DNA from: Bacteroidota bacterium
GTDB lineage: Bacteria; Bacteroidota; Bacteroidia; AKYH767-A; OLB10
Length of the DNA stretch: 64,000 nt
Direction of reading: 5' to 3'
Assembly: GCA_947453935.1 (NCBI GenBank)
Contig: CANGJU010000001.1
Location: 11,112-75,111, forward strand
Each line of letters begins with the position of its first letter. Within the stretch, counting starts at the first letter, position 1. The notes under the pieces were generated by a model. The model did not search any database. It was not told where the DNA came from and worked only from the letters and a program-made list of their open reading frames with translations. Shown here piece by piece: positions 3,815 through 52,944 of this stretch. A program made the position numbers and the translations under genes.

Positions 3815-5464
3815 TTATTCCTTCACCCATCGAACGGTTGTGTTGATTTTTTCGTTCTTAATACTGGTGATATACATACCACTTTGCAAGGATTCTATTG
3901 AAAGTGGAAGTGATAAATCGGAGGTAACTATATCACTCATCACCAAACGGCCATCAAGACTGTATGTATTGATAGTATAAGTTGCAGGCGGCAAGCCGCT
4001 AATATCAATATGGTCTTTTGCGGGGTTAGGCCTTACCGTTAGTGATAAATTATTTTGTAGTTGATTGATAGAAGTAGTTGTTGATGAGTACCCTAATTTC
4101 ACTGCCCAAATATCTCTTGCGCCACGACCTGCATCATGTTTCACATTACTAATTCCATCGTTAGCTGTTGCGGTAATAAGTAACGTACTATCATTTAATA
4201 GCATTAATGCCTCGGCAAATTCTGCTTTGTTTGCCCCAATATTTTTATACGTCAACAATGCCCCTGAGGTATCTAAATCCATAACTACAACATCATAGTC
4301 TCCATACCCAGGGTTAAGAAATGTACCATTTGATACGCTCGGAACTGATGCTACTGCAAAAAAACCACCTTGTGCATTTAGTATAACATCCCCAAATTGC
4401 TCCGGCTGTGAAGTCCCATACGTTTTCTCCCAAATTATATTACCACTTGTATCCGTTTTGATAATCCATAAATCTTCTTGATAAAGTGGAATTAGTACAT
4501 TTTCTTTAAATCCAAATAAGTAATAAAAATTATCCTTTTCAATTATTTTCATCAGCCCTGTCCACCCTGTGCAACCGAAACGTTTATCCCAGATTTTATT
4601 TCCATTTTTATCTACTTTAAATACAATAGCCTCAGCAAAACCAGGAGGAGCGATAGGAGAAGAAGCAATATTTCCACCTATTCCACTCTCGGTTAATCCA
4701 TAAACCAAGTAATTACTATCATTCAAAATTATATGTCCTTGATGTACATTGTTATTATAATTATTAGCAGCTCCTTGATCTCTATCCATTCCTCCAAAAA
4801 CTCGATCCCATTGCTTATTCCCTGATGAGTCTAACTTAATCACCCATAGGTCTTTAGCTGCTTGAAATGGGGTTTGAGATGGATAATAGAATGCGTTTTG
4901 AGTTTTATCAAAATCTTGCACGCCATTACTAGTGCCCGATAACAATAGGCCTCCGTCTAAAGTTTGTTCTGCACTACAATATAGATCATCACCAGAAGAA
5001 CCAAATCGTGTTTCATTAATTTTGTTGCCAAGAGTATCAAGAAATAACAGAATATAATCAAACCCCCCTCTTGTTGTTGTAAATAAACTACAAGAAGAAT
5101 CTCCAGTAGTATGCCCTGCAATTAAAAAACCTTGTTTATATGGTATAATGCTATATGCTTGGTCATAGGCTGAAATTGCACCATAATTTTTATCCCATAT
5201 TTTATGAAGGGAATCATCAAAAGCGACAATCCAAATATCTTGAGTAGCACCTGAGATTTCACAGTTTGGCTCTGTTTTATCTTGCTGTGCAGTATAACAT
5301 TTACTAAAACCTACAATTGCATTTAATTGGTTTAGTCGCGCGATGTCACTTCCTTCGTCCATATTAATTGTTCCGAAGCAATGATCATCTATATAGTTAA
5401 ATGATTGGGCATTGGAGTTGGTTTGAATTAAAAATATAATAAATATGATATATAAGTTTTTCAT
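3815..5464 (-). CDS. T9SS C-terminal sorting domain cargo protein with SBBP/beta-propeller-like repeats
   Basis: Signal peptide, repeated SGNKQWDRVFGG / NGNKIWDKRFG / SGNIIWEKTYG motifs, C-terminal Por-secretion tail (...YITSIKNEKINTTVRWVKE). Paralog of 52945-54594. Confidence 0.7.
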   Translation of the reverse strand: MKNLYIIFIIFLIQTNSNAQSFNYIDDHCFGTINMDEGSDIARLNQLNAIVGFSKCYTAQQDKTEPNCEISGATQDIWIVAFDDSLHKIWDKNYGAISAYDQAYSIIPYKQGFLIAGHTTGDSSCSLFTTTRGGFDYILLFLDTLGNKINETRFGSSGDDLYCSAEQTLDGGLLLSGTSNGVQDFDKTQNAFYYPSQTPFQAAKDLWVIKLDSSGNKQWDRVFGGMDRDQGAANNYNNNVHQGHIILNDSNYLVYGLTESGIGGNIASSPIAPPGFAEAIVFKVDKNGNKIWDKRFGCTGWTGLMKIIEKDNFYYLFGFKENVLIPLYQEDLWIIKTDTSGNIIWEKTYGTSQPEQFGDVILNAQGGFFAVASVPSVSNGTFLNPGYGDYDVVVMDLDTSGALLTYKNIGANKAEFAEALMLLNDSTLLITATANDGISNVKHDAGRGARDIWAVKLGYSSTTTSINQLQNNLSLTVRPNPAKDHIDISGLPPATYTINTYSLDGRLVMSDIVTSDLSLPLSIESLQSGMYITSIKNEKINTTVRWVKE

Positions 5465-5476
5465 TTATACAAAATA

Positions 5477-7018
5477 TTAATGATTAAATCTAGCTATTTT
5501 TTTTGAACTGAATGTATGATTACTATACTCTGATTTTTGTATAATTAAATCATTAGTAAAATGATTAAAGTAATTAAAGTAATTAAAGTAATTATCAAAT
5601 ACATCGGTATTTTTGTTGTTTGTAGTAAATAATAATTTACCGTCTAAAGAGTAGTAACTTGTTTGTATTAATTCTTTAGATGTGTCCAAATGTATTGTTG
5701 TCGCATTTTGATTCAACTTAAAACTAGTAACAGAAGAAATAGATTTTATCATTTTATAATTAACATCCCAGATATTTGTACCTCCAATACTAATATTCTG
5801 ATAAGTGGAGAATAATTCATTGTCTGCATGCCTTCCAGCTAATGATAAAAAGGAAGATACATCATAATTGTTGTTTGTTATGGAATAAGGGACTTGCCAG
5901 AATAGAGAATCAATAGGTATAGCATTATTATTACATCTAAGTGCTATTGAATAATCGGTATAATTAACAATATTTGGATAGGATAAGTTTCCTGAATAAA
6001 ATGACCAACCAACATAAATGCCATCAGTAGGATAGTTACTCGAATAGCAAACGCTTACATAATAGTTTGCATTTTGCGATATATTAGCAGTATTTGTATT
6101 ATAATTAATTACAGATCCACCATTATTAAAGCCTTTTACATTCCAAAATGGGCTTGGTGAAGTTGAGCTGTTCAAGTGTTCATATGAAACAACCGTCCAT
6201 TCAGAAGGGCTACCCCCATTAGGCCCGGGAGAAGCAATTCTTGGAAACTCCCACTTATAACTAATCGTAGGAGGATAAGCCATTGGTATAGTAATCGTAT
6301 TAACTATATTTGAAGCTAAATCATTAAAATTATAATCATCTATTGTTAATTCGCCATTTTTAGCATCAATATAGCATACATGAACTACATCGGCATTACT
6401 GTCAGAGTATAAACTGACATCAGGATTAACTCCAAAATCCAATTGATTTGTCGAAATAATTACTGAAGATGTGTTTCCGACAGCGGCAAATATTCTTTTT
6501 GATTGGTCATCCCAAACTATTGTAAATTCCCCAACTAGCTTACTATTACCATCAATGTTTAAAGTGGTGCCAAAAGGAGCATTTGCAAAATTTGTAACAT
6601 TAACTGATGAAAACGCCAAAATGCTGCTTTTCCATTCAAATATTTCTAAATAATAATTTGAGCTCAATGAATCATAATAAACAACTGCCGCAAGAAGGTT
6701 AGAATCAGACTTTGTGAGTATACAAACGTCAGGGTCCTCTAAATATCCGGGATAAGTAAGGGGTAATGTTCCAACATAGCTATTACCCATATAATCAACT
6801 ACCCAACCGAATCCTCTATTTTTTGTAGCATTACCCCAAACACTTACACGATATGTATTATTATTAAAAGTCATAATATCACAGCCAGTATTACGGCTAT
6901 AAATCGGACTGACTCCATAACTGCTATCCTGTATAACAGGAGAAACAAATTGTGCATTAGCCATAAGAACATTAATTAATAAGCACCATAGTGCTAGTAG
7001 TTTTTTTGATATTTTCAT
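5477..7018 (-). CDS. Secreted protein of unknown function (first gene of two-gene operon)
   Basis: Signal peptide MKISKKLLALWCLLINVLMANAQ. 12-nt gap to downstream 549-aa gene. Paralog (~75-80% aa) of 51394-52935. Confidence 0.7.
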   Translation of the reverse strand: MKISKKLLALWCLLINVLMANAQFVSPVIQDSSYGVSPIYSRNTGCDIMTFNNNTYRVSVWGNATKNRGFGWVVDYMGNSYVGTLPLTYPGYLEDPDVCILTKSDSNLLAAVVYYDSLSSNYYLEIFEWKSSILAFSSVNVTNFANAPFGTTLNIDGNSKLVGEFTIVWDDQSKRIFAAVGNTSSVIISTNQLDFGVNPDVSLYSDSNADVVHVCYIDAKNGELTIDDYNFNDLASNIVNTITIPMAYPPTISYKWEFPRIASPGPNGGSPSEWTVVSYEHLNSSTSPSPFWNVKGFNNGGSVINYNTNTANISQNANYYVSVCYSSNYPTDGIYVGWSFYSGNLSYPNIVNYTDYSIALRCNNNAIPIDSLFWQVPYSITNNNYDVSSFLSLAGRHADNELFSTYQNISIGGTNIWDVNYKMIKSISSVTSFKLNQNATTIHLDTSKELIQTSYYSLDGKLLFTTNNKNTDVFDNYFNYFNYFNHFTNDLIIQKSEYSNHTFSSKKIARFNH

Positions 7019-7039: not shown

Positions 7040-7258
7040 CAAATATAAAGTGGCAAATACCTTAAAACAATAAGTAATATTACTTATTTTTCTAGTACTA
7101 CAAAATGACAAGTATTCGCCAATTACAATTGTCTTATTAACTTGTTATCAGTTGTTTATGGTTTCAAACAGAAGGTATTATCACTCAAAAAATTGAAATT
7201 TTTGGTTCTTGAAATTTTTTAAGGTCTCCGAAAAACGTCATAATTACTTGCCACTGTT
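7040..7258 (-). promoter_or_regulatory. Conserved upstream cassette, copy 1: -7 box TATATTTG, 20-bp palindrome, inverted AGTGGCAARTA repeats, distal AAAAACGTCA motif
   Basis: Bacteroidetes-type -7 box (7040-7047, minus). IR arms at 7049-7059 and 7245-7255. Palindrome AATAAGTAATATTACTTATT at 7069-7088. Same architecture at 19524-19742 and 51158-51373. Confidence 0.6.
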
Positions 7259-7379: not shown

Positions 7380-7814
7380 ATGAAATCAAAAACCATCCTA
7401 CTATTTGCCTTTTTACTATTATCAAAAAGTATCTTCGCTCAATCTGCGTTCAATGAAATAAAAGCATTTGAGCAGAAAAGATATCAAGCTTTAATTAATG
7501 CAGATATTGCAACAACAACTAAATTGATTTCTCCTGATTTATTATACACGCATTCGAATCTAAACTTTGAAGATAAGAACGCATACCTCCTTGCACTAAC
7601 AAGTGGGAAGTACAAGTTTGAAACATTTCAAACGGATAGCACGCAATATGTTTTTCTGAATAAGAAAACAGTTATAGTAGCGGGATTCGTCCACATGCAA
7701 GGACGTTATAACGATACTCCTTATAAATTAGATGGGCGCTTTACCGCAGTGTACACAAAAAAGAAACATCAATGGCAACTGGCGGCATGGCAAACGACCA
7801 AGAAAGTAAATTGA
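7380..7814 (+). CDS. Secreted SnoaL-like/DUF4440-type small protein (NTF2-like fold)
   Basis: 144 aa, signal peptide MKSKTILLFAFLLLSKSIFAQ. ~92% identical to the 19866-20300 paralog. Confidence 0.55.
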   Translation: MKSKTILLFAFLLLSKSIFAQSAFNEIKAFEQKRYQALINADIATTTKLISPDLLYTHSNLNFEDKNAYLLALTSGKYKFETFQTDSTQYVFLNKKTVIVAGFVHMQGRYNDTPYKLDGRFTAVYTKKKHQWQLAAWQTTKKVN

Positions 7815-7841: not shown

Positions 7842-8159
7842 CTAAATCTTTTTTGCTCCTTCAATAATCGCATCTACTACTGCAGGGTCGAGGAGGGTGC
7901 TAGTGTCGCCTAAATTGCTTAAGTCGTTCTCTGCAACTTTTCTTAATATTCTGCGCATGATTTTTCCCGAGCGTGTTTTGGGTAAGCCTGTCACAAATTG
8001 TATTTTGTTGGAGCTCACCAAAGGGAATATCATTACATCAAATTCGTATTTGCTCACTTTAAAAGCGCCAGCAATAGTAATTGGAGGAAGTTTAAACAGC
8101 TTTGTGAGTGGACCGTTGAAAAAAATTGGCTCTGCTGCGTTTTTATATCCTATTGGCAA
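7842..8159 (-). pseudogene. 3' fragment of acetyl-CoA synthetase (duplicated acs remnant)
   Basis: C-terminal 54 residues ([54 protein letters not shown]) identical to the end of the full acs at 20328-22250. Homology stops near 8007. Confidence 0.75.
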
Positions 8160-14564: not shown

Positions 14565-14692
14565 TTAAAAGTTCGATTTAGTTATTTTTGCAAACATTTA
14601 ATATCAACCAAAACTGAATTTATTTTTTCGATTTAAATTTTTGTTTATTCCACTATTAAATAGGAGTAATTTTTAATGAGAAACAATAGGCC

Positions 14693-14716
14693 CAGACTTA
14701 ATTAAGTCTTTTTCCT
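14693..14716 (+). terminator. Terminator candidate
   Basis: Perfect 16-nt palindrome AGACTTAATTAAGTCT followed by TTTTT. Confidence 0.4.
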
Positions 14717-15089
14717 AAATTATTGCCTTACTATATTCTAATATCCCATTTTAACATGAAAATTTCAATTGGTAAGATACAGCATCAGTAATAAATAATA
14801 ATGGATGCCCATTGTTTTCTATTGCCTATCATTATTTCGTAGTACTGATATTGGTAAAGTAAGTAAGATGGGAATAAGAAGAAAATAAATAGGGTACAGC
14901 ATGAATTAAGTGAAGGCATAAGAAAGGCACTTAACTGGCAATCACCTAAAAAAGTGTTGGCACAAGAGATACTAAATCTTTCTAATTAATAATATTGGTT
15001 TTAATACTACTAATTTCATATGCTTGATTATACAAAAAAAGTGCACTAAAATATTGAACCGAATAAATCAAATTGTCAAATTTCCAATC

Positions 15090-15370
15090 GCAATTCTGAT
15101 TCCTCGGGAAGTGATCAAATCGTCATATCAATTAAACGTTTGTAAATGCGTATCAACCGTATAATTATTTCCAGATGTTTAAATTTACTGCGGTCCCGAG
15201 GTTTTCTCGGGATTCGGTGGGGCTGTTGTCCCCCCATAGTGTTGAGAGATTGTTTTTTTAGTTCGAGGCCTCGCTAATTGCTAATGAAATACATTAAATT
15301 TATTTAGCATATTCACACATCGTGATCCCAGCCCGAGGAATCGGGATCGCAATGCGAGCTCATTAATATT
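15090..15370. other. GC-rich structured non-coding island in an 880-bp gene-free convergent spacer (possible sRNA or repeat element)
   Basis: Local GC spikes with hairpins TCCCGAGGTTTTCTCGGGA, TGGGGCTGTTGTCCCCCCA, CGAGGCCTCG, GATCCCAGCCCGAGGAATCGGGATC. No ORF of 60 aa or more. Confidence 0.35.
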
Positions 15371-15371
15371 T

Positions 15372-15412
15372 TTTTGCATAAAAAAGGGGCATGAGGCCCC
15401 TTGATATTTTTG
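15372..15412. terminator. Bidirectional rho-independent terminator (shared module)
   Basis: AAAAAAGGGGCATGAGGCCCCTTGATATTTTTG. Hairpin flanked by an A-run and a T-run. 30 nt downstream of the 384-aa gene stop. Confidence 0.6.
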
Positions 15413-15442
15413 AAAAACTAATTATTTATTTATTTTTAATAA

Positions 15443-16597
15443 TCACTCCAACACTATTTTTTTACTGGTTATTATTTTGCCATTTTCTTGAAGATTGACC
15501 AGGTAAACCCCACGCGACCAAGTAGAGCAGTTAATAGTGTTATAATTAATTGCAGCCGAAGAATAAATAAGTTGCCCTTGTGAATTAACAACTTTTATTT
15601 GAGCTTGCGCCGAAGTTTTATAGGGCAAATAAACTGTGAAATTAGAACTGGCAGGGTTGGGGTACACTGACAAATCCTTTAGAGCGGAAGGTATTTCATT
15701 TACGCTTACTAAGGAGCCATTGATGCAGGTTGCCATAGTTTTTCTATTTGTAGGTGCAATAAAATTAATGGGAGGTTCTCGAACTACTGTGTCATTTATA
15801 ATTGCGAAGGGAATTAAATCAGTAGGAGACGGCCCATTGGAGGCATCAGTCCCTACATAAATTTTATTGTTCATTATAAACATCCCGTGAGCACCAAATA
15901 GGTCACAATAAAAATTCAATGGATAGTCATGAATTAAATTACCCATTTCATCGATGCATCTTAAGTTGGTAGCAACCCAATAACCACTGCTGTTACCAAT
16001 GTGATCAAAAAACCAAATTTGATTTAAATTATCGATTGCCAATTGAGTAATAATATATTCATTTGGATTCCATGGATAAATGATAGTATCCGCAATTTGA
16101 TTCAAATTATTATATTTTAATCGTACTAAATCTACTTCCCACCCACCACTAGCGATAGGTGAAGAAGCTGCAGCAACAATAAAATTGTCATTACCTGTCA
16201 TTGAGCCACAAGGGAAATTCAAATTGACATTAATTGTATCCCAATTATTTAAATTGGTATTAAACCTCCTTAAATAACTAGTATCCAAATCATAAAAAGT
16301 CCTACATGCACTTGGGTATTCTAAATTTACGAGAGCTAAATTTGGAGAATATGGTGCGATACTTGTTTTATTTAATGTAACCAAAGAAATTGTATTATTT
16401 ACCAGGGTATATTCTGCTATTCTGAATGAGTCAACTGGCGGACCAAGATAATATTTTAGCCAAAATGTATTTGGATTGCAGGGTATATTGAAACATGCAG
16501 CAGTATCATTTACTTTATTAGCAGATGTTTGCCCGTATATATTTATATTGACAATTATCACAAATATAATTGTCAAATAATGTTTTATATTTTTCAT
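15443..16597 (-). CDS. T9SS C-terminal sorting domain cargo protein
   Basis: Signal peptide MKNIKHYLTIIFVIIVNINIYGQ. Por tail (...LVNLQENGKIITSKKIVLE). Confidence 0.7.
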   Translation of the reverse strand: MKNIKHYLTIIFVIIVNINIYGQTSANKVNDTAACFNIPCNPNTFWLKYYLGPPVDSFRIAEYTLVNNTISLVTLNKTSIAPYSPNLALVNLEYPSACRTFYDLDTSYLRRFNTNLNNWDTINVNLNFPCGSMTGNDNFIVAAASSPIASGGWEVDLVRLKYNNLNQIADTIIYPWNPNEYIITQLAIDNLNQIWFFDHIGNSSGYWVATNLRCIDEMGNLIHDYPLNFYCDLFGAHGMFIMNNKIYVGTDASNGPSPTDLIPFAIINDTVVREPPINFIAPTNRKTMATCINGSLVSVNEIPSALKDLSVYPNPASSNFTVYLPYKTSAQAQIKVVNSQGQLIYSSAAINYNTINCSTWSRGVYLVNLQENGKIITSKKIVLE

Positions 16598-16605
16598 CGT
16601 TTGAA

Positions 16606-19503
16606 TTATTTCGTGTTGAGTTCTTTTTTACTACCTATATATTGATTTTGATAGTAATATTTAATAAGGAATAAGGAATTAGGGTACTTTAATTTGTCTT
16701 TGCTCCAACTCATTAAAGAGTTTTGGTAAACTAATTTACCTGATATATCAAAAACCTCTAAACGTACAAATTCTTTTTGCATATCATTTAATTGCAATAG
16801 TTGTTCAAGAGTTAATATTTCAGTAACATTAGTAGTTGAAATATTGCTTATTCTTAAATTAAAATTATTGATATGATATTCACGATCAAGTAAGGTGCGG
16901 CTGTTTCTAACTCCTGTTCCACCAATTAATTCATCTGTAATTGCAATTGCTTCTAAGTCTTGTATTTCATTTTCGGTAGGGTCTCTATCTTCTGCAATTA
17001 ATGATAGTGTTATCCTATCCACAATTAGGTTGTTCTCTTCAATTGTATTATTTGAAATCATATTGTTTAATCGATATAAGGCGTCAATAACGGTTTTTTC
17101 ATTGCTTAGTGCTATTGCATCTACATAATTCCCTATATTATCTTGACGATGCAAGTTAATAAAATCTACATAGTTTTGATCTAACGCTTGAAGAGCAGAG
17201 TCATTTGAGATTACTGAGTAAGCAAATACTTTATCTAAATAATGATTTTCTTCTATGTTTTCATCATATTCTAATTCATTATAAATTATTTGGCGAACAC
17301 GTTCATAAATAGCATCTGTTAAAGTGGAGTTTGATTGACCACAGAATGAATTTTGAGCAACATTAGTAATGTGTACAATAAAATTATTAATTGGATTAAC
17401 ACTAATGGATATAATTGGTGAACTGCCAGATAAATACCAACTAACGGCATCTACCGTACCTCCAAATTTAGAAATATTGATTTTAAAAGAGGTAAAAAAG
17501 TTATTATAGGGCATTAAAGGCTTGCCTTGATCGGCTAACTTTGCTTTGCTAAAATAAATACCATTTAAAAACCCTGTTAAAGGAGTAGATGGATCTCCTT
17601 CAAAGTTATTACAATAAATATTTGTGCCAACACAATCATCTTTGATATACAAACCACTACCCATTTTATTTAATTTGTTTTCACTAATAATTGAGTTTCT
17701 TCCACTGCAATTATCTAACTTAATTCCAATCAACTGGTTTATATAATCTTTAGTAGTACTATTTATGGGATTCGTTTGAAAAATATCATTAGAATTTACG
17801 AATATTTGATTCGAATTTTCTAAGTAGATTCCTGCATGATAAGGGTTTTCCGAAATATTAGGTGTTGGTGTATGACTTAAATTAAAACTATTAAACCTTA
17901 TAGGAAACATGCTTGTAGTATCATTTCCTAAACCTTTAATATTGCTAGCATAAATACCCATTCTAGCCGCGTTAAAAGTATTGTTTTGAATATGACCATT
18001 AATGGTAGTAGGGGATACAAATGCTAAGCGAATTGCAACATTTTCTAAATTGCCATATGGTTTTTGAATTTGAAAATAAGTACCAGTATTAAACGTATTG
18101 CTGTCAATTTCTAAAGTAGCTTCAATAAATCTTTTGCAATAAATTGCGCAGTAAAAGCGTGAATCGAAACTGTTTCCAAAAATTTTAATCGTTTTACTTG
18201 AAATATTAAAATTATCTACGCGCACACCACCTAGTGAATTAACATTATTTATGTTGTTTTTATAACAATAAACATTAACATTTTTAAAAGCATTTACACC
18301 ATACTTGCAGTTATTTATTAGATTATTATTGGGTTTTAACAAGTGTCCAAAATTTATTGTTTGTTCTTGGTTTGATGTTCCTTCACAATAAATAGCACTC
18401 CCATTATAAATTCGGGTATTGGTATAAGCGGATATAGGAATTGTATTAACTATAGTAACACGCTCTGGAAGTGTTATTGATCCTCGGATATTAGCAATAC
18501 CAATATTCATATTCTGAATATTAATTTGCATTACATCATTATTTATTTGGTTGTTGAAGTTAGGGTTGTCATATAGATAAAATCCAGCAAAACTTTTGCT
18601 TTGTGGTGTAGTTTGTTGCCCGCAGTAATTGGGTAATAAATTAAAATTGTTGTTTATTGAAATTCCTGGTCCAGTAGAACCGCCAAAATTTAAGTTATTG
18701 CCATTAGGATTTTCAGGTGAATAAACAGCTATGTAATTATCTAAAAATTGACTTGCATTAGGTGATCCATTATTGAAATCACCTGTTATTGTCCCTTTGT
18801 AATAAAGGCCATATTCCGCATCTCTTATTGTACTTCCATCCCTTATTTTAATTGTTGCTTGATCCTGAGCGTGTATACCTTGCCACAAATGCCCACATCC
18901 TGCTTGGATGGTTGAGTTTATTAATCCAAATCCCATATTAGGTATAACATTGATAATTCCACCTTGGTCAACATTTATAATTGTATTGTGAATTTCAAGG
19001 GTTTGATTGACTAATAATTGACCGTGTAGTTCAATTATACTATTTTGATTTGGATATATTAACGGGTCATAGATAAAGGTAGTTCCATTTTGAACGATAT
19101 TAGGTATTTTATCTGGTGTAATGTCAATTAATTGCGGAAGTGAATCATTTTGACAACAAGGTTGTAGGTACAAAGTATCAGTAGCATTACAAGGACTTGT
19201 TTGGTGCAAAACAATCATTGCATAATAAAAAGTTGAACTATTGATTGCAGAATTTGCTGAAAACTGATTTCCTGTTACTGATAAAATACTTGTTGTAATA
19301 GGCGAATCATATACATCATAAGTGGTCAATTCTGCTGAATAAATTCCTGCATTATTATAATTATCAATTGTGTAAATAAATAAGTTTTGAGGACCACACA
19401 AGCTTTGTTTGCCATTAATTTTGGGGTTGCAATTTTGTCCGTTAGCCAAAACGCAATTTAATAAAATGCACCAAAGTGCTAATAAGTAGTTGCTTTTTTT
19501 CAT
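16606..19503 (-). CDS. Large secreted right-handed beta-helix-like protein with T9SS C-terminal domain
   Basis: Probable start is M18 of the track ORF (MKKSNYLLALWCILLNCVLANGQ), 21 nt downstream of the TATATTTG box. The longer 19554 start would overlap the promoter. 8-nt gap to the 384-aa gene. Confidence 0.7.
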   Translation of the reverse strand: MKKSNYLLALWCILLNCVLANGQNCNPKINGKQSLCGPQNLFIYTIDNYNNAGIYSAELTTYDVYDSPITTSILSVTGNQFSANSAINSSTFYYAMIVLHQTSPCNATDTLYLQPCCQNDSLPQLIDITPDKIPNIVQNGTTFIYDPLIYPNQNSIIELHGQLLVNQTLEIHNTIINVDQGGIINVIPNMGFGLINSTIQAGCGHLWQGIHAQDQATIKIRDGSTIRDAEYGLYYKGTITGDFNNGSPNASQFLDNYIAVYSPENPNGNNLNFGGSTGPGISINNNFNLLPNYCGQQTTPQSKSFAGFYLYDNPNFNNQINNDVMQINIQNMNIGIANIRGSITLPERVTIVNTIPISAYTNTRIYNGSAIYCEGTSNQEQTINFGHLLKPNNNLINNCKYGVNAFKNVNVYCYKNNINNVNSLGGVRVDNFNISSKTIKIFGNSFDSRFYCAIYCKRFIEATLEIDSNTFNTGTYFQIQKPYGNLENVAIRLAFVSPTTINGHIQNNTFNAARMGIYASNIKGLGNDTTSMFPIRFNSFNLSHTPTPNISENPYHAGIYLENSNQIFVNSNDIFQTNPINSTTKDYINQLIGIKLDNCSGRNSIISENKLNKMGSGLYIKDDCVGTNIYCNNFEGDPSTPLTGFLNGIYFSKAKLADQGKPLMPYNNFFTSFKINISKFGGTVDAVSWYLSGSSPIISISVNPINNFIVHITNVAQNSFCGQSNSTLTDAIYERVRQIIYNELEYDENIEENHYLDKVFAYSVISNDSALQALDQNYVDFINLHRQDNIGNYVDAIALSNEKTVIDALYRLNNMISNNTIEENNLIVDRITLSLIAEDRDPTENEIQDLEAIAITDELIGGTGVRNSRTLLDREYHINNFNLRISNISTTNVTEILTLEQLLQLNDMQKEFVRLEVFDISGKLVYQNSLMSWSKDKLKYPNSLFLIKYYYQNQYIGSKKELNTK

Positions 19504-19523: not shown

Positions 19524-19742
19524 CAAATATAAAGTGGCAAATAACTGAAATCAATAAGTAAAATTACTTATTTTTTAATCCATTAAAAATGGCAAATAAC
19601 GTTTCTTGATTATTGTCCTTTAAATTAATAATCAGTTATTTATAGACTATTATACTTATATTTTTTGGCTCGATCAATCAAAATTTTACCTTTTTGAAAT
19701 TTTCAAAGGGCTTCAAAAAAACGTCAGATTTTACTTGCCACT
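19524..19742 (-). promoter_or_regulatory. Conserved upstream cassette, copy 2
   Basis: -7 box at 19524-19531 (minus). IR arms at 19533-19543 and 19732-19742. Near-palindrome AATAAGTAAAATTACTTATT at 19553-19572. Confidence 0.6.
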
Positions 19743-19865
19743 GAATTATATAATAAAGACGGAGAACTGCAAGTTGTTTCGCTTCATGGGAATGCATAAA
19801 ACGCTAATTTCAAAACAATCCTACTTTTGTAAACCCCAAATCATACACTATTCACACACCTATCT

Positions 19866-20300
19866 ATGAAATTAAAAACTATCTTACTATTTACCTTTTT
19901 ACTATTATCAAAAAGTATTTTCTCTCAATCTGCATTAAACGAAATAAAAGCTTTTGAACAGAAAAGATATCAAGCTTTAATTAATGCAGATATTGCAACA
20001 ACAACTAAATTGATTTCTCCTGATTTATTATACACGCATTCGAATCTAAACTTTGAAGATAAAGCAGCATATCTCTTTGCATTAACAAGTGGAAAGTATA
20101 AATTTGAAACATTTGAAACGGATAGTACGCAGTATGTTTTTCTGAATAAGAAAACAGTTGTTGCAGCGGGATTAGTCCATATGCAAGGACGTTATAACGA
20201 TACTCCTTATAAATTAGATGGGCGCTTTACCGCAGTGTACACAAAAAAGAAACAGCAATGGCAATTAGCAGCCTGGCAAACGACCAAGAAAGTGAATTGA
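19866..20300 (+). CDS. Secreted SnoaL-like/DUF4440-type small protein
   Basis: Paralog of 7380-7814. Signal peptide present. Confidence 0.55.
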   Translation: MKLKTILLFTFLLLSKSIFSQSALNEIKAFEQKRYQALINADIATTTKLISPDLLYTHSNLNFEDKAAYLFALTSGKYKFETFETDSTQYVFLNKKTVVAAGLVHMQGRYNDTPYKLDGRFTAVYTKKKQQWQLAAWQTTKKVN

Positions 20301-20327: not shown

Positions 20328-22250
20328 CTAAATCTTTTTTGCTCCTTCAATTATCGCATCTACCACTGCAGGATCCAGTAGAGTGCTGGTATCTCCTAAA
20401 TTGCTTAAGTCGTTCTCCGCAACTTTTCTTAATATCCTGCGCATGATTTTTCCTGAGCGTGTTTTCGGTAAGCCTGTCACAAATTGTATTTTGTCGGGCT
20501 TGGCAATAGGACCAATAACTTTGCTTACGACGTCTAAAATTTCTCTTCGTGTTGTGTGTTCATCTTCTGGTAAGTGGTCGCATATAACGTAAGCGTATAT
20601 ACCCTGTCCTTTAATTTCATGCGGGTAACCAATCACCGCCGATTCAATCACGTGAATATGCTCGTTAATGGCATTCTCAACCTCTGCGGTTCCTAGTCGG
20701 TGGCCACTTACATTGATGACATCATCAACACGTCCAATTATCCGGTAATAACCATCGTGGTCGCGTTTGCAACCATCACCTGTAAAATATAAATTCTCGT
20801 ATGTACTGAAATAGGTCGTGCGACATCGCTCATGGTCGCCATAAGTGGTGCGCAGCATACCAGGCCATGGGTACTTAATGCATAAGTTGCCTTCTACATT
20901 ATTGCCTTCAATGATTTTTCCTTCGGCATCTACCAGCACAGGCTGCACGCCCGGAAGTGGTAAGGTAGCAAAGGTCGGTTTAGTAGGAGTGATATTAGCA
21001 AGAGGAGATATCATCACGCCTCCAGTTTCCGTCTGCCACCAGGTATCAACAATGCCGCAATTTCCTTTCCCAATTTTTTCATCGTACCAATGCCATGCTT
21101 CTTCATTAATAGGTTCTCCAACGGAGCCCAATGTTTTTAAGCTTGCTAACGAATACGGAGTAACGAACTCGTCACCTTGTGCCATCAGCGAACGAATAGC
21201 AGTCGGAGCAGTATAAAAAATATTTACTTTGTGTTTATCAATTACATTCCAGAATCTTCCTGCATCAGGATAAGTAGGAATGCCTTCAAACATTAAAGTG
21301 GTGGCACCGTTTAATAAGGGTCCATAAACAATATAAGAATGACCTGTCACCCAGCCGATATCTGCAGTACACCAGTAAATATCACCTGCGTTATATTGAA
21401 ACACATTGGCAAAAGTATAAGCTGCCCAAACCATATAGCCAGCTGTTGTATGCACAACTCCTTTTGGTTTACCTGTAGATCCAGAAGTGTATAAAATAAA
21501 TAACATGTCTTCTGCATCCATCGATTCAGCAGCACATTCATTCTCACAGTCTTTTATTGCATCTTTCCAGTAAACATCTCTTCCTGCTTGCATGTTAATC
21601 TCTGAATTTGTATTCTGAAATACAATTACGGTTTCAACGGAAGAAGTAGAAGCGAGCGCATTGTCTACAATTTCTTTTAAGTTCAATGCTTTTGCTCCTC
21701 TGTAAACACCATCTGCTGTAATGACCATCTTGCAAGTAGCATCATTAATTCTATCTGCTAAACTCTGAGCAGAAAATCCCGCGAACACAATCGAATGAAT
21801 AGCGCCAATTCTAGCGCAGGCTAACATCGCAACAGCTGCTTCGGGTACCATTGGCATATAAATACAAACACGGTCGCCCTTTTTTACTCCAGCATTTTTA
21901 AGCATGTTAGATGCTTTACAAACTGCGTGATACAATTCACGATACGTAAGCGTACATCCCTTGCCGTTAGGGTCGTTGGGTTCCCAAATAATAGCAGGTG
22001 TATTTCCATTTGTATCAAGATGACGGTCGAGGCAGTTTTCTGTGATGTTTAAAACGCCACCTTCAAACCATTTTACATCAAACGATCTAAAATCCCAGTT
22101 CAATACGTTATCCCAACGTTTCTTCCACACAAAATTCTCCGCTATATCATTCCAGAAGGATATAGGATAATTAACGCTTTTTTCATAGGCCTGCTGATAG
22201 GCTTCCATCGACTCAATACGTGTATTCATGCTAGTTGATTTAAAAGTCAA
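20328..22250 (-). CDS. acs: Acetyl-CoA synthetase
   Basis: 640 aa with canonical AMP-binding and ACS motifs (YTSGSTGKPKGV, TYRELYHAVCK...). Confidence 0.9.
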   Translation of the reverse strand: MTFKSTSMNTRIESMEAYQQAYEKSVNYPISFWNDIAENFVWKKRWDNVLNWDFRSFDVKWFEGGVLNITENCLDRHLDTNGNTPAIIWEPNDPNGKGCTLTYRELYHAVCKASNMLKNAGVKKGDRVCIYMPMVPEAAVAMLACARIGAIHSIVFAGFSAQSLADRINDATCKMVITADGVYRGAKALNLKEIVDNALASTSSVETVIVFQNTNSEINMQAGRDVYWKDAIKDCENECAAESMDAEDMLFILYTSGSTGKPKGVVHTTAGYMVWAAYTFANVFQYNAGDIYWCTADIGWVTGHSYIVYGPLLNGATTLMFEGIPTYPDAGRFWNVIDKHKVNIFYTAPTAIRSLMAQGDEFVTPYSLASLKTLGSVGEPINEEAWHWYDEKIGKGNCGIVDTWWQTETGGVMISPLANITPTKPTFATLPLPGVQPVLVDAEGKIIEGNNVEGNLCIKYPWPGMLRTTYGDHERCRTTYFSTYENLYFTGDGCKRDHDGYYRIIGRVDDVINVSGHRLGTAEVENAINEHIHVIESAVIGYPHEIKGQGIYAYVICDHLPEDEHTTRREILDVVSKVIGPIAKPDKIQFVTGLPKTRSGKIMRRILRKVAENDLSNLGDTSTLLDPAVVDAIIEGAKKI

Positions 22251-26626: not shown

Positions 26627-28054
26627 TTATTGTTCTAAATTGTTTTCAGAATTAATTAGTTGTAAAGTATTATCAACTAATTGAACTTTTTGATTAAGCT
26701 TGATTGAATTATTATCGCCTGTAATTATGCTTACATCAATGCCTCTATTCTTGAATTCATCTACGAGCAAGATTATATACTCAAAGCGCGCACTTGCTGA
26801 AGCTCTGGAATTGACTTCCCGATTAAAAGAATCTACTAAGTTCTGAGCATCGCAGCTCGAAAGAATTTTCTTCCATTCATTTCTACGTTTTTCACCTCCA
26901 AAGTCTTTATCGAAATATTCTATTAGCTGGTTAAGTTTCTCAGTATCTAAATTTTCCCATGGGTAATCAAGATTTCCAAAATGTCCGTGAACTGCGGTTG
27001 GACCATAAATCGGACGCTTTAATTGAAGTGCGTTGATTATTCCCTTCGGACTTAAATCAAATACCGACCTAACGGCAAGGGCTAACCGAGAATCTACATG
27101 ATGTAAACTGGTTCCATGGGTATCAACATGAACTGATAATGGTTGATTATGTCCAATAGCATACGATAACTGAATGGTACATTCTTTCGCAAGTCCTGAA
27201 GCAACAATTAATTTTGCAATCCAGCGAGCCATGTACGCTGCTGATCGATCTACTTTACTTGGATCTTTGCCTGAGAATGCGCCACCACCATGCGGACATT
27301 TTCCTCCATACGTATCAACAATAATTTTTCTTCCTGTTAATCCGGTATCTCCATGTGGACCACCAATGGTGAATCTTCCAGAAGGATTAATGAAATATTC
27401 CGTTTCTGATTCTCCTTTGTAGTTTGCAATTACAGGATTAATGATTTCACGAATTATAAATTCGTGTAAAAATTCTTGAGAGATATCGGGAGTGTGCTGT
27501 GCTGAAAAAACTACTTTACTAACTCCTATAGGCGAGTTGAGTTTATAATCGACAGTTACCTGCGATTTTGCATCAGGAAGTAAGAATGGATAGTTGCCAG
27601 TGTCACGTAGCTCCTGATGTTTGCGAATAAGTTCATGTGCAAGATAAATTGGGAGCGGCATAAGGTTCGGACCTTCAGAAGTTGCGTAACCGAACATGAG
27701 TCCTTGATCACCTGCACCACCATCAATAACGCTATCGTTAATCTCTTTACTTTGTTGATGTAAGAGGTTTTGATAGAAGGCCGTTTTCCAATTAAAGCCA
27801 GTTGATGAATCGTTATATCCGATTCGCTCTAACACTTCCTTCGCAATCGCAATTGGATCAACTACAGCAGAGGAGGTGACTTCTCCTGCAATGGTTAAAT
27901 GGTTGGTGGTGATTAAACATTCGCATGCAACTTTTGCATCCGGGTCTTTTGCTAAATAAGCATCTAAGATAGCGTCTGAAATTTGATCAGCCACTTTGTC
28001 TGGGTGTCCTGCCGACACCGATTCGCTTGTGAACGAATGATTGAATAGATTCAT
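26627..28054 (-). CDS. metK: S-adenosylmethionine synthetase with ~85-aa C-terminal extension
   Basis: N-terminus FTSESVSAGHPDKVADQISDAILDA and GGPHGDTGLTGRKIIVDTYGG motif. Core ends near YPWENLD at about residue 370, but the ORF continues to 475 aa. Confidence 0.85.
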   Translation of the reverse strand: MNLFNHSFTSESVSAGHPDKVADQISDAILDAYLAKDPDAKVACECLITTNHLTIAGEVTSSAVVDPIAIAKEVLERIGYNDSSTGFNWKTAFYQNLLHQQSKEINDSVIDGGAGDQGLMFGYATSEGPNLMPLPIYLAHELIRKHQELRDTGNYPFLLPDAKSQVTVDYKLNSPIGVSKVVFSAQHTPDISQEFLHEFIIREIINPVIANYKGESETEYFINPSGRFTIGGPHGDTGLTGRKIIVDTYGGKCPHGGGAFSGKDPSKVDRSAAYMARWIAKLIVASGLAKECTIQLSYAIGHNQPLSVHVDTHGTSLHHVDSRLALAVRSVFDLSPKGIINALQLKRPIYGPTAVHGHFGNLDYPWENLDTEKLNQLIEYFDKDFGGEKRRNEWKKILSSCDAQNLVDSFNREVNSRASASARFEYIILLVDEFKNRGIDVSIITGDNNSIKLNQKVQLVDNTLQLINSENNLEQ

Positions 28055-28139
28055 AGTATGAAAGAATTAAAGATTAATTTCTAACTCAATACATACATCA
28101 AAAAGAAGCGAAGTGGATATCCTGTTATATTTTGACTGA

Positions 28140-28360
28140 ACGTCCACATCGCTTCACCACCGTGGCGCGGATACGCTCGGTTGGTATTATAGTCGGAACT
28201 ATAATTCTTGATGTATTAAAAAATAAAGAACAAATTGTATTCAGCAATTTGTAAATTAAACGAGAGGAGGGAGGGTTTATTGTGCAAAGCGCTTTTTTGA
28301 CTCCTGGTCCGCATCGTTTTACCACCGTTGCATCGTCCGCTCGGTTGGTATCATATTTAC
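28140..28360. repeat. Two copies of a REP-like hairpin element (ACCACCG...CGGTTGGTAT)
   Basis: Copies at ~28156-28190 and ~28320-28354 share conserved stem arms with variable loops and conserved flanks (CGATG-YGGAC...AGTCAAAA on the minus strand). Confidence 0.5.
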
Positions 28361-28470: not shown

Positions 28471-28917
28471 TCAGGAAAAATACTTTTTATAAAATTCAAT
28501 TTGGTGGGCGACTAATAAATCGTTTAATTCATTTAGCGAATTCTTTTTCTTGTGATGCTGCTCTTGATTTTCAACATAGCGTATTAGTCGTTCTTTTTCT
28601 TTAACTGTATAGGTGAAGGCTCCGTAACCTGATTGCCATCCATTAAATTTTTTGAAGAGCTTTTGTTCTTTGATAAAATGGGTGCTTGATAGTTTAATGT
28701 CTTTTACCAACGCAGCCAAGGAAACGGATGGATGTAGGTCGCATACAATGTGCAGGTGATCTTCAACCCCGTTAACACAATGTGTGAAGCATTTTTTATT
28801 TCGGATTACAGTTGCAATATATGCGAACAATTCTTGGCGTTTATCGGCGCTTAATGTTTTTTCTCTTCGCTTCGTCGCAAAAACTATCTGGTAAATGATT
28901 TGAGTATAGGTCGTCAT
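28471..28917 (-). CDS. tnpA: IS200/IS605-family HUH (Y1) transposase, RAYT-like
   Basis: 148 aa with HuH motif (DHLHIV) and C-terminal catalytic Tyr region (GYGAFTY). Flanked on both sides by hairpin repeat arrays. Confidence 0.65.
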   Translation of the reverse strand: MTTYTQIIYQIVFATKRREKTLSADKRQELFAYIATVIRNKKCFTHCVNGVEDHLHIVCDLHPSVSLAALVKDIKLSSTHFIKEQKLFKKFNGWQSGYGAFTYTVKEKERLIRYVENQEQHHKKKNSLNELNDLLVAHQIEFYKKYFS

Positions 28918-29402: not shown

Positions 29403-30302
29403 ATGCAATTTAGTTTATTAAGCAGGTGTTTAGGACATACAGGTGGTGTGTATGATTTAATTAAAATTTCGGATAGGGAATTTTTATCAGCGTCGGGCGA
29501 TCGATTAGTAGTGTCTTGGAATATTGATAATCCGGAGCATGGAAATCTAATTGCAAGAGCAGCTGATAGTATTTATGCAATCTGTTTTTTGTCGGATACG
29601 AATGAGCTTTTAATTGGACAGGCAAAAGGCGAAATTCATGTCATAGATTTATCGACTAATCAGGAAAAGAAATTATTAAAGATAAATGACAAAGGCGTGT
29701 TTTCTATTTTAGAAAACAAATTGAAAAACAAAATTTACGTTTTAGGTGGTGATGGAGTTTTATCTGTTTTAAATTCAAAAGATTATTCATTGATTGCTAA
29801 AAAGAAGATTTCTACAATGAAGCTTCGTTCTGTTTTGTTTGATGAAGCATCTAACAAACTTTATTTCGGGTGTGGTGAAGGTGTTGTAACTGTTTTTGAT
29901 GATGATTCAATGGAACTGTTATTAAGCAATCAAATTTCTAATAACGGATTTTCAATTAATACAATGATGGATTTTTCGGAAGAACATATTATATGTGGAG
30001 GAAGAGACGCGCATTTACGATGGATACAAAAAGGTGACTTATCAATTGTTGATGCAGTGCCTGCTCATAACTATGCAATCTATAAAATCAGTTTTTCTCC
30101 CGATAAAAATTTATTTGCTACTGCAAGTCGCGATAAAACTTTGAAGATTTGGGACGCAAAAACAAAGCAGATTATTCAGCGCATTGAGCAAGCAAGCGAC
30201 GGACATCTTAATTCAGTAAATACACTTTTATGGATGGATGATCACACTCTTATAAGTGCAGGTGATGATCGTTCAATTAATATCTGGAGAAAAAATAATT
30301 AA
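29403..30302 (+). CDS. WD40-repeat protein
   Basis: Repeated WD motifs (TLKIWDAKT, SINIWRKN), about 7 blades. Confidence 0.7.
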   Translation: MQFSLLSRCLGHTGGVYDLIKISDREFLSASGDRLVVSWNIDNPEHGNLIARAADSIYAICFLSDTNELLIGQAKGEIHVIDLSTNQEKKLLKINDKGVFSILENKLKNKIYVLGGDGVLSVLNSKDYSLIAKKKISTMKLRSVLFDEASNKLYFGCGEGVVTVFDDDSMELLLSNQISNNGFSINTMMDFSEEHIICGGRDAHLRWIQKGDLSIVDAVPAHNYAIYKISFSPDKNLFATASRDKTLKIWDAKTKQIIQRIEQASDGHLNSVNTLLWMDDHTLISAGDDRSINIWRKNN

Positions 30303-31450
30303 GCAGGAATGCTAATCTTTACAGTAGTTCCAATTCCTAATAGCGATTCGAGGGTAATAGTTCCTCCTAATTTTGAAACCATTTCCTTGCAGATATATAA
30401 ACCGAGACCAGTTCCTTCTACGCTGCTTGTTGCTCGATAAAACATATCAAAAATTTTAGGTAGACTTCTTTCGCTTATCCCGATGCCATTATCTTGAATC
30501 GTTATTTCAAGAAATGAATTTTGCTTTGAAACAATTATCTTAACAAAACAATTATCATTATTTGACTTTCTGTATTTTACTGAATTGCTAATAATGTTTT
30601 TCAGTATGGTGGTCAAACGAAATTTATCACTTGAAATAGCAGGAGCAGTATTGAATTCAATATCAAAATTGATGTTTGCTGAGTGTTTTAAGTCCTCTGT
30701 AATCTGCCTTAGTATCACTGCTAAGTCTAAATCTGTATTTTGAATATCAAATCTGGCATTGCGACTATAATCTAAAATTTCAACAATGGAATTATCTAAT
30801 CGATTTATGGAATTAATAATCATTTGTAAAAGTGATATGGTAGATTCGCTTAATTCCTCTCGTTGTTTTATAATATCTATTATGCCGTGAATAGATAATA
30901 ACGGAGAGCGTAAATCGTGCGATACACTGTAAACAAATCTGTCAAGCTCCGCATTTGCTTTTTTGAGTTCATCGTTTTTAGCGGCGAGCATTTCATTTGA
31001 ATGATTCGAATCTTCTACTGCCATTTGCTGTACTCGCAAATTTTGTATCATATCGATAGTCGAATCATGCACAGCAAAATCATTGATCTTTAATCCGAGT
31101 TTTTCAAAATCTTTTTCATTCAAAATCCAAGGTGATCCACAAAAGAGTAATGATTTATTTTCTTCGTGAAAGACAAACTCTCCTTTTAAACGAAACGTAA
31201 ATTCGTTCGATTTGCCTGCTAAAATGAAAATTTGATTTTCATATAATCGAATAGAATCAATTTGATATTTGATGCCAAGGCCGGGGCGTACGAATGAAAA
31301 ATACTTGGTAAAAGGCATACCCACACAATCGTCACCGATTATTTTTTTTAAGCTGTTACCCGCCTCTGTAATTATTAATTCTTGATTAAGAAAAAAGTGA
31401 AATGGGAACAATCTGCTTATTAGTAAATTGCTCTCTTTAGTGCTAATCAT
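30299..31450 (-). CDS. H-NOX-associated sensor histidine kinase (HNOBA-HisKA-HATPase_c), cytoplasmic
   Basis: N-terminal region FRLKGEFVFHEENKSLLFCGSPWILNEKDFEKLGLKINDFAVHDSTIDMIQNL aligns with the sGC HNOBA domain. H-box SHDLRSP. G-box GTGLGL. No TM segments. Confidence 0.8.
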   Translation of the reverse strand: MISTKESNLLISRLFPFHFFLNQELIITEAGNSLKKIIGDDCVGMPFTKYFSFVRPGLGIKYQIDSIRLYENQIFILAGKSNEFTFRLKGEFVFHEENKSLLFCGSPWILNEKDFEKLGLKINDFAVHDSTIDMIQNLRVQQMAVEDSNHSNEMLAAKNDELKKANAELDRFVYSVSHDLRSPLLSIHGIIDIIKQREELSESTISLLQMIINSINRLDNSIVEILDYSRNARFDIQNTDLDLAVILRQITEDLKHSANINFDIEFNTAPAISSDKFRLTTILKNIISNSVKYRKSNNDNCFVKIIVSKQNSFLEITIQDNGIGISERSLPKIFDMFYRATSSVEGTGLGLYICKEMVSKLGGTITLESLLGIGTTVKISIPA

Positions 31451-31995
31451 TGTATAATATCGATTTCAAAAATATCATGCTCATCTCCATTTCTACGATC
31501 AGCTACAAGTGCAACATTAATTGGAGTATTATAAAGTTCACCTAACCCCTGTATAAGTCCGAACATAAAGTCTGTTAGTCCTTGTCTTGTTGAATAATAA
31601 TGCAACATCAGTTTACTAGCAGTCGCTTTTTCAACGATAAATTCCGGCGGTTTAATATCGGAGTAGATAAGCATTACACGGCTATGAAAATTAGGAAGGT
31701 TAACGATAAAGTCGATGAAGTTATCTCCACCAGATTTCATCAACGGCCCATATTTTTCATTGCCTACTTTTATTATCCAGTATTTGCCAAACGTTTTTAA
31801 TACATCGGAAAGTGGGATATCTAATATTTCAGATGCGGATATTGCCAGATTGAATGTGATGCTATCATCGTAAATTTCATTACTTAAAAAAGCCTCTTCT
31901 GCAACACCTGCTTTTTGTTTTATTTTATTCCAATTATCGCTTCCAAAGTTGTCGATAACTAATCCTTGGATGGCTTGATTTACTAAACCGTACAT
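31447..31995 (-). CDS. hnoX: H-NOX (heme-nitric oxide/oxygen binding) domain protein
   Basis: MYGLVNQAIQGLVIDNFGSDNWNKIK...IYDDS closely resembles the sGC beta1 H-NOX N-terminus. Proximal His at residue 104 (NFHSRV). YxSxR motif (HYYSTRQ). 4-nt overlap with the kinase gene. Confidence 0.85.
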   Translation of the reverse strand: MYGLVNQAIQGLVIDNFGSDNWNKIKQKAGVAEEAFLSNEIYDDSITFNLAISASEILDIPLSDVLKTFGKYWIIKVGNEKYGPLMKSGGDNFIDFIVNLPNFHSRVMLIYSDIKPPEFIVEKATASKLMLHYYSTRQGLTDFMFGLIQGLGELYNTPINVALVADRRNGDEHDIFEIDIIQ

Positions 31996-46457: not shown

Positions 46458-46490
46458 TCAAATCAAAAAAAATAAAAACAAATAAACCAT

Positions 46491-51000: not shown

Positions 51001-51069
51001 TCGGTCGCTGAGGCTCTCGAAGCGCGAATGGCACTATAATCGGTTCGCTTCGAGGGCCTCAGCGACCGA
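51001..51069. repeat. Long GC-rich perfect hairpin (24-bp stem, 21-nt loop)
   Basis: TCGGTCGCTGAGGCTCTCGAAGCG / CGCTTCGAGGGCCTCAGCGACCGA. One G-T wobble. 35 nt after the alr stop. No U-tract. Confidence 0.5.
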
Positions 51070-51157
51070 AGGGATATAGCGTTTATTCTCAAAAATAGCT
51101 TTTGGTTAATTTTATTTCGTATGCCTATAAAAAAGCAATGAATAAATTATATAATCT

Positions 51158-51373
51158 AGTGGCAAGTAAAATTTGACGTTTTTTGGGCCTGTTAAAATAT
51201 TTTTTGGAAATTTATTTTAGGCATTTTGCTCGAAATGGCCACTTGATTATTATCCTATTATACTAATATACAGCCATTTAAATTCAATATTTTAGAAAAA
51301 AGCCACCATTTTTAAAAACTTCAAAATAAGTAATTTTACTTATTGTTTTCAGTTATTTGCCACTTTATATTTG
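51158..51373 (+). promoter_or_regulatory. Conserved upstream cassette, copy 3
   Basis: IR arms at 51158-51168 and 51354-51364. Palindrome AATAAGTAATTTTACTTATT at 51325-51344. -7 box TATATTTG at 51366-51373, 20 nt before the ATG. Confidence 0.6.
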
Positions 51374-52935: not shown

Positions 52936-52944
52936 GGGGTCTTT

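Follow-up and report, generated by a model that had tools for sequence, protein, structure and literature searches.

Secreted-protein operons and their surroundings

The window, by which we mean the whole 64-kb stretch of DNA analysed here, has a G+C content of 35.6% and carries housekeeping genes together with many genes whose products have a T9SS C-terminal sorting domain (CTD). This study centres on three operons for secreted proteins, each of two genes. The first, at 3815–7018 on the minus strand, encodes a signal-peptide protein of 513 aa with a β-propeller core and, 12 nt further on, a β-propeller protein of 549 aa that carries a CTD. The second, at 15443–19503 on the minus strand, encodes a signal-peptide protein of 965 aa and a CTD protein of 384 aa, their genes lying 8 nt apart. 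The third, at 51394–54594 on the plus strand, again encodes a 513-aa protein and a 549-aa protein with a CTD, with 9 nt between the genes, and is a paralogue of the first. The two 513/549 operons are 71–73% identical at the amino acid level and 76% at the nucleotide level, and are old paralogues. All three first genes encode signal peptides, and their products gave no Pfam match. Only 31 of 5.8 billion clustered proteins belong to the 513-aa family, whose core was modelled as a β-propeller (mean pLDDT 70), with resemblance to lectins, sialidases and polysaccharide lyases at the level of the fold only. The 549-aa protein matches the CylK propeller.

The initial annotation had described all three operons as paralogous. 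This holds for the two 513/549 pairs and for the promoters, but not for the 965/384 pair, in which only the first 38 aa, signal peptide included, match. Judged from the sequences, the 965/384 and 513/549 operons have the promoter and the signal-peptide region in common, but not their genes. The length of 982 aa first given to the larger protein also has to be revised, as that open reading frame starts at a TTG inside the palindrome described below, and the conserved layout favours the ATG at 19503 and a product of 965 aa.

A divergent DUF4440 (SnoaL-like) gene lies beside the first operon (7380–7814, plus strand). A second copy, 92% identical, is found beside the second operon (19866–20300), and there is none at the third. 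After this second copy, at 20383–20497, we see a 115-nt copy (93% identity) of the 5′ end of the 1890-aa SprB-repeat gene (7897–8011), placed antisense within the 3′ end of an acetyl-CoA synthetase ORF. This fragment indicates that the first two promoter regions derive from a segmental duplication that was later truncated.

Elsewhere in the window, the 880 nt between two convergent cargo operons (14565–15442) are free of ORFs longer than 46 aa, and neither a tRNA nor an Rfam match was found there. The RNA scan of the window returned a SAM-I/IV riboswitch only (28118–28219, minus strand, 51.5 bits), 5′ of the S-adenosylmethionine synthetase gene at 26627–28054, and no tRNAs. Adjoining the riboswitch and metK is an IS200-type Y1 transposase gene (28471–28917, minus strand), the sole mobile-element gene seen in the window. 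An H-NOX (haem-NO-binding) gene followed by an HNOBA histidine kinase gene occupies 30299–31995 on the minus strand; the pair may serve as the gas-sensing input of a two-component system, and no response regulator is encoded close by. At 43222–47750 on the plus strand, a TonB-dependent receptor gene is followed by two HmuY-like genes, one of them with a T9SS CTD, in a cluster that looks like haem uptake and has no palindrome. Finally, a single ORF of 830 aa (48475–50967, plus strand) fuses MurF-type ligase domains to an alanine racemase, and 3′ of it, at 51001–51069, lies a 24-bp G+C-rich hairpin (96% complementary) that is conspicuous in this A+T-rich genome.

A palindrome embedded in consensus-like promoters

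A perfect 20-bp palindrome, AATAAGTAATATTACTTATT, is located 5′ of the first operon at 7069–7088 (site 1). Near-perfect counterparts precede the second operon at 19553–19572 (AATAAGTAAAATTACTTATT, with AA at its centre on the plus strand; site 2) and the third at 51325–51344 (AATAAGTAATTTTACTTATT, with TT at its centre; site 3). In both of these the 9-nt arms are perfect and only the central 2 nt are asymmetric. All three copies had been reported in the initial annotation, and each is present where it was placed. The palindrome is A+T-rich (18 of 20 bases, 90%). With up to two mismatches allowed, AATAAGTAAnnTTACTTATT occurs three times in the 64-kb window against 0.02 occurrences expected from shuffled sequences, although the three copies do not count as independent events because they are located in paralogous intergenic regions. 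Relaxing the search to four mismatches adds two weak matches, at 4515 and 38890, and both are intragenic (ORFs 3815–5464 and 36320–40741, respectively).

In gene orientation, the three sites have one layout in common: first the palindrome and a G, then six variable bases, TTATTTGCCACT with one T more, the box TATATTTG, about 20 nt and the ATG. The palindrome ends 49–50 nt before the operon ATG and 21 nt before TATATTTG. Its terminal TT and the following G form a −33 TTG, found at 51343–51345 on the plus strand for site 3 and at 7068–7070 and 19552–19554 on the minus strand for sites 1 and 2. A 20-nt spacer separates this element from TATATTTG, which lies at 7040–7047 and 19524–19531 on the minus strand and at 51366–51373 on the plus strand for sites 1, 2 and 3. 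The Bacteroidota −7 consensus TAnnTTTG is known from Bacteroides and Flavobacterium promoters, and TATATTTG fits it perfectly. The box is 28–29 nt 5′ of the ATG, and the full TTG-20-TATATTTG arrangement is at 51–52 nt 5′ of it, in each case, so that all three sites qualify as Bacteroidota −33/−7 promoters. The proposed geometry, in which the palindrome covers the −33 region about 20 nt 5′ of the −7 box, is thereby borne out at every site. The palindrome is centred about 9.5 bp 5′ of the −33 TTG, at a predicted position of roughly −42. Complete promoters of the form TTG-N17-22-TAnnTTTG precede four genes in the window, and three of these are the palindrome sites; the remaining −7-box promoters of the window lack the palindrome.

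The spacer element TTATTTGCCACT lies between the −33 and −7 elements at 51353–51364 (plus strand) for site 3, and at 7049–7060 and 19533–19544 for sites 1 and 2. Its invariant TTGCCAC could be a further protein site, or could be left over from a duplication, in inverted orientation, of the core promoter; both are conceivable. A sigma-54 or ECF-sigma promoter at GTGGCAA/TTGCCAC was considered and rejected on inspection, as the spacings misfit both TGGCAC-N5-TTGC and the typical ECF −35/−10 arrangement. In subsets of promoters, a third TTTGCCAT is found about 25 nt upstream of the palindrome.

A conserved module bounded by inverted repeats

Alignment of the three window copies resolves two conserved islands. 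Island A, the 55 nt from the palindrome to the −7 box, is 91–95% identical among the copies. Island B (AGTGGCAAGTAAAAnCTGACGTTTTT) lies about 166–169 nt upstream and is 82–90% identical. The variable region between them (136–138 nt) is only 54–63% identical, and the 5′ untranslated region 68–74%. At site 3, island B reads (T)AGTGGCAAGTAAAATTTGACGTTTTT and occupies 51157–51184 on the plus strand, 166 nt upstream of the palindrome; its counterparts on the minus strand are at 7231–7256 (site 1) and 19715–19743 (site 2). The palindrome is one component of a larger conserved module.

Island B combines the distal arm of an inverted repeat with a degenerate, operator-like half-site (CAAGTAA...TGACG). 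The repeat, a 12-nt AGTGGCAA(A/G)TAA of which TTATTTGCCACT is the proximal arm, flanks 183–186 nt at all three window sites and is present in most relatives. Its arms are at 7049–7060/7244–7255, 19533–19544/19731–19742 and 51158–51169/51353–51364. Exact matching of the arms extends over 8–12 nt only. If two 3-nt indels are allowed, the symmetry reaches about 25 nt, with a TATA-like box outside each arm, an extension established partly by inspection. Island B was also considered as a canonical divergent promoter and discarded, as no TAnnTTTG is found at the right distance and the DUF4440 gene owns a TACTTTTG box 44 nt 5′ of its ATG. At site 3, a stretch of approximately 90 nt (51070–51157), from the murF-alr terminator hairpin to island B, is conserved in three relatives (L053, L078 and L104) although no divergent gene is present there; a small divergent transcript is conceivable, as is a remnant of the DUF4440 leader.

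Occurrence in related genomes

A scan for the exact arms across one genome per species (596 Gb) gave at least 117 stretches. Among the matches listed, about 100 are singletons scattered over genomes that are unrelated and mostly A+T-rich, and they show neither a promoter context nor any other common one; by our own estimate, these look like roughly what chance would give for an 18-base A+T-rich pattern in 596 Gb. Three hits to viral contigs have unrelated contexts, and a phage origin was set aside. A further 17 of the matches listed come from eight freshwater Bacteroidota MAGs. Together with the source contig and a few metagenome contigs, these eight representative genomes provide at least 23 sites in the clade, which fall into 18 of type I and five of type II.

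Type I (at least 18 loci: 12 scan matches, L123, L144, L145 and the three in the window) reproduces island A, and nearly always island B, upstream of genes for signal-peptide proteins of 384–972 aa that belong to different families. The register of the palindrome before an ATG-proximal TATATTTG is kept at no fewer than 15 type I promoters besides those of the window. Type II (at least five loci) has the palindrome, a G and a T-run, a variable 20-nt spacer that is unrelated to that of type I, and a −7 box TATTTTTG, in flanks that are likewise unrelated. Across both types the pair of 9-nt arms is invariant, as are a portion of the GTTT and a portion of the −7 box, and nothing else; the centre of the palindrome is AT, AA or TT.

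All 23 listed clade sites are located at −33/−7 promoters, as seen in 8-kb pieces of the relatives and 69 kb of the source contig. The 9-nt arms are perfectly complementary at the three window sites and at least 20 sites in relatives, and positions 6 and 15 of the palindrome are G and C, respectively, at 23 of 23 listed sites, an invariance that is partly built in because most comparative sites came from exact-arm searches. The G after the palindrome is retained at 22 of the 23, the exception being L123. Sampling that was independent of the palindrome covers about four lineages. It includes a search of metagenomes with the spacer and −7 box as anchor, which recovered one true promoter (L123), and contigs reached through protein homologues with identities down to 46% (L144, L145 and L156); the arms are intact in every one of these. 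A core-promoter search with mismatches across the relatives' loci found no promoter with a degraded palindrome.

More distant homologues of the 513-aa protein (39–45% identity, from other lineages) were checked for a diverged palindrome, and there the entire module is missing, which restricts the motif to a narrow clade. A different dyad-like element, GGGTTGCTTTTCTnTTCAACCC (GGGTTG-N10-CAACCC), lies about 45–70 nt before the annotated ATG of such homologues (L137:2735–2775, L141:2925–2955, L143:2925–2955 and L157:1125–1150), the copy in L157 having a stem mismatch.

The combinations of upstream regions and genes are mosaic. One 965-type gene is found behind two different upstream types, and the site 2 promoter of the window is nearly identical to one that directly drives the 384-aa gene in the relative L051. 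Because related genomes exchange promoter segments in this way, the sites are not fully independent. The conserved island is evidently used as a substrate for recombination, and the block of promoter plus signal peptide appears to behave like a cassette.

A candidate small RNA and a possible auxiliary upstream site

Driven by the type II promoters is a non-coding stretch of about 115 nt that is highly conserved in five related species. This candidate small RNA lies directly 3′ of the palindrome promoter (L009:1935–2060; also L012, L015, L072 and L102). A coding frame can be excluded for it because of a 1-nt indel. The sequence is nearly invariant, with a 12-bp stem closing it (GGCTTGCTTAC...GnAnGCAAGCC), and the copies are too alike to give covariation support. 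Comparison with Rfam gave no match, even at E ≤ 1.

Upstream of the type II palindrome we find a second, degenerate palindrome, AATAAGTAAnnTGACTTA, at 185–186 bp in four loci and about 185 bp in the fifth, and the DNA between the two has diverged. In type I, island B offers a good half-site, CAAGTAA, followed by TGACG after 3–4 nt instead of 2. Because of this variable centre, a rigid dimer could not bind island B in the same manner as the palindrome. A conserved second site at a constrained distance is the layout of looping regulators, which is suggestive only.

We also examined the proposal that the palindrome marks T9SS cargo genes, with hits clustering in front of them. This does not hold as a general rule, since five other CTD genes in the window lack it, and in the relatives the palindrome also precedes the small RNA while its degenerate form AATAAGTAAnnTGACTTA precedes a divergent cytidine deaminase gene by about 47 nt.

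The palindrome as a putative operator

The palindrome is most probably an operator for a homodimeric, possibly tetrameric, transcription factor, with binding predicted from the sequence pattern. The block that contains it is conserved above the surrounding non-coding DNA (91–95% against 54–63% identity), and the palindrome is also conserved in the otherwise unrelated type II promoters. Hitch-hiking in a duplicated segment cannot explain this conservation, because type II shares only the palindrome, the −33 and the −7 elements. Invariant arms around a variable centre are the pattern expected of a dimer that contacts two half-sites. The suggestion in the initial annotation of a dimeric operator over the −33 element that co-regulates the three operons is thus retained as the best-supported reading, and has gained from the recurrence of the motif at 23 or more promoters; its details on paralogy, gene length and T9SS cargo needed correction.

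A bound dimer would sit where sigma region 4 and the α C-terminal domains dock on a near-consensus promoter (TTG-20 nt-TATATTTG), since the palindrome is centred near −42 and its 3′ arm supplies the TT of the −33 element. From there the operator would control the three two-gene secreted-protein operons of the window and, in relatives, more operons of this kind together with the conserved small RNA, which would make up a lineage-specific regulon. Control might be by repression through promoter occlusion, perhaps aided by looping to the degenerate second site some 165–186 bp upstream. We infer that a repressor is somewhat more likely than class-II-type activation, because the core promoters are consensus-like and the auxiliary site is at a conserved distance, although a centre near −42 is an equally classic position for a class II activator. 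In Pfam scans, neither the window ORFs (thresholds relaxed for those without annotation) nor the type II neighbourhood gave a DNA-binding protein gene. The 5 kb beyond the window (81-kb metagenome contig ENA ERZ27263685) hold no transcription factor gene, and encode only DsbD, a DUF3267 protein, CtaA and an amino-acid kinase. Our literature search on the half-site and on palindromic regulators of T9SS cargo returned nothing relevant.

Several other explanations for the palindrome have to be weighed against an operator. It occupies the position of an UP element (about −35 to −54), is 18/20 A+T, accompanies consensus −33 and −7 elements, and in type II promoters is directly preceded by an A-tract, so it might be an intrinsic UP-like element to which the α C-terminal domains of RNA polymerase bind, giving these promoters great strength with no dedicated factor involved. 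UP elements are degenerate A/T tracts, however, and an exact dyad with an invariant G6 and C15 at 23 of 23 listed sites, with variation confined to the centre, is not expected of them; other window promoters with −7 boxes also do without the palindrome. We regard this as unlikely. A functionless palindrome could instead have been kept by gene conversion that homogenises a block of about 55 bp among paralogous promoter cassettes. The shuffling of upstream types and downstream genes shows that recombination in or beside the conserved block does occur, and the signal peptide of one 513-aa protein (p513a) is closer to that of the 965-aa protein than to that of its own paralogue. Yet type II keeps the register of the palindrome with an unrelated spacer and unrelated flanks, the arms are fixed where the centre varies, and conversion tracts would not end exactly at the edges of a 20-bp dyad, all of which makes such an origin decidedly unlikely. 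The perfect inverted repeat followed by GTTTT also recalls a hairpin in RNA or DNA, whether a terminator or attenuator of the upstream transcript or a cruciform. The predicted structure reaches only −4 kcal/mol (z-score −1.7), its stem being all A–T except for one G–C pair, and the palindrome is not in the operon transcript because it lies 5′ of the −7 box. At site 3, moreover, a 24-bp G+C-rich hairpin already follows the upstream gene, at 51001–51069. A hairpin function is scarcely credible on these grounds.

The inverted repeat raises two further alternatives that concern the module as a whole. Invertons of about this size are common in Bacteroidota, the repeat is found at all three window sites with nearly constant spacing, and the L144 contig (assembled with MEGAHIT) starts exactly at the first base of the distal arm (AGTGGCAAG...). 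The region could then be an invertible promoter switch, in which inversion uncouples the palindrome and −33 from the −7 box and the surface proteins vary in phase. A single orientation is seen, however, in all of the type I loci (at least 18) and in seven further independent assemblies of site 1 from different samples. The signature of the inverted orientation would be TTACTTGCCACT joined to TTATATTTG, and no inverted junction appeared in a metagenome scan able to catch it, which recovered one true locus. A Pfam search of the 64 kb, covering ORFs of 100 aa or more, turned up no recombinase gene, nor does the adjoining 5 kb contain one; what the repeat encloses is the −33 element and the palindrome only, the −7 box being beyond its proximal arm. 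Given the one orientation in assemblies, the lack of a nearby recombinase and the lack of an inverted junction, we rejected the switch as very improbable. The start of the L144 contig at its position 1 may be fortuitous, or it may reflect a breakpoint, from recombination or from assembly, at the edge of the module. The same terminal inverted repeats, present in several copies per genome with unrelated genes downstream, might alternatively bound a miniature mobile element of about 210 bp with an outward-facing promoter. Against such an element, no target-site duplication can be defined, and the functional context never changes: each copy is followed at a constant distance by the ATG of a signal-peptide gene. 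Identity within the interior is 54–63%, unlike copies from recent transposition, and the 64 kb contain no copy at an unrelated position. The probability of a mobile element is next to negligible.

A probable lineage-specific regulon

Returning to the operator, these observations describe a putative new operator motif with a small lineage-specific regulon. To our knowledge, gene regulation in uncultured freshwater Bacteroidota is largely uncharted, and few operator motifs have been described for the −33/−7 promoters of the phylum. The palindrome would provide a precise cis-element for a small regulon of secreted β-propeller proteins (lectin- or glycosidase-like) and a candidate small RNA. The kind of control element is ordinary, and no new kind of mechanism is involved. 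The occurrence of a common promoter and signal-peptide block in front of unrelated cargo genes bears on how these bacteria vary their secreted proteins.

A more far-reaching idea, which we put forward tentatively and consider doubtful, is that of a private regulon in a narrow freshwater clade. The palindrome and an auxiliary site about 165–185 bp away might then coordinate fast-diverging β-propeller operons with the previously undescribed RNA of approximately 115 nt, and the promoter and signal peptide might travel as a portable cassette. If this is true, the cassette would be a way to swap which variable surface or secreted proteins obey one control signal.

Comparison with known systems

The system can be set beside several known types of control element. 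Fur/Zur-type boxes of the 7-1-7 kind were considered, but the even-length 9-2-9 geometry does not seem to fit them. Closer are the operators of the lac (O1/O3), gal (OE/OI), deo and ara (O2/I1) type, which similarly have a near-palindrome of about 20 bp with a tolerated central spacer, overlapping an upstream core element, and which occur at several promoters per genome and with a weaker second site, here 165–186 bp upstream at a conserved distance. The differences are that the present sites belong to −33/−7 promoters, that the auxiliary site of the operons has a different half-site spacing, and that looping is only suggested. Class II activator sites of the CRP/FNR kind are also dyads of about 20 bp, centred about 42 bp from the start and abutting or overlapping the −35 equivalent. 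The palindrome is, however, unrelated to TGTGA-N6-TCACA and TTGAT-N4-ATCAA, and no Crp/Fnr gene was seen nearby; its core promoter is already consensus-like, which is unusual for activator-dependent promoters.

With Bacteroidales invertons the module shares short inverted repeats around a promoter-proximal segment of about 185 bp, in front of genes for surface or secreted proteins. It differs from them in its one orientation in assemblies, in having no recombinase nearby and in a −7 box that lies outside the repeats. In the core promoter there is a likeness to the housekeeping promoters of Bacteroidota (−33 TTG and −7 TAnnTTTG), as all three window sites have the TTG, a 20-nt spacer and TATATTTG. 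Compared with this general consensus, the promoters described here have two extra features, an invariant palindrome 5′ of the −33 element and an invariant TTATTTGCCACT in the spacer.
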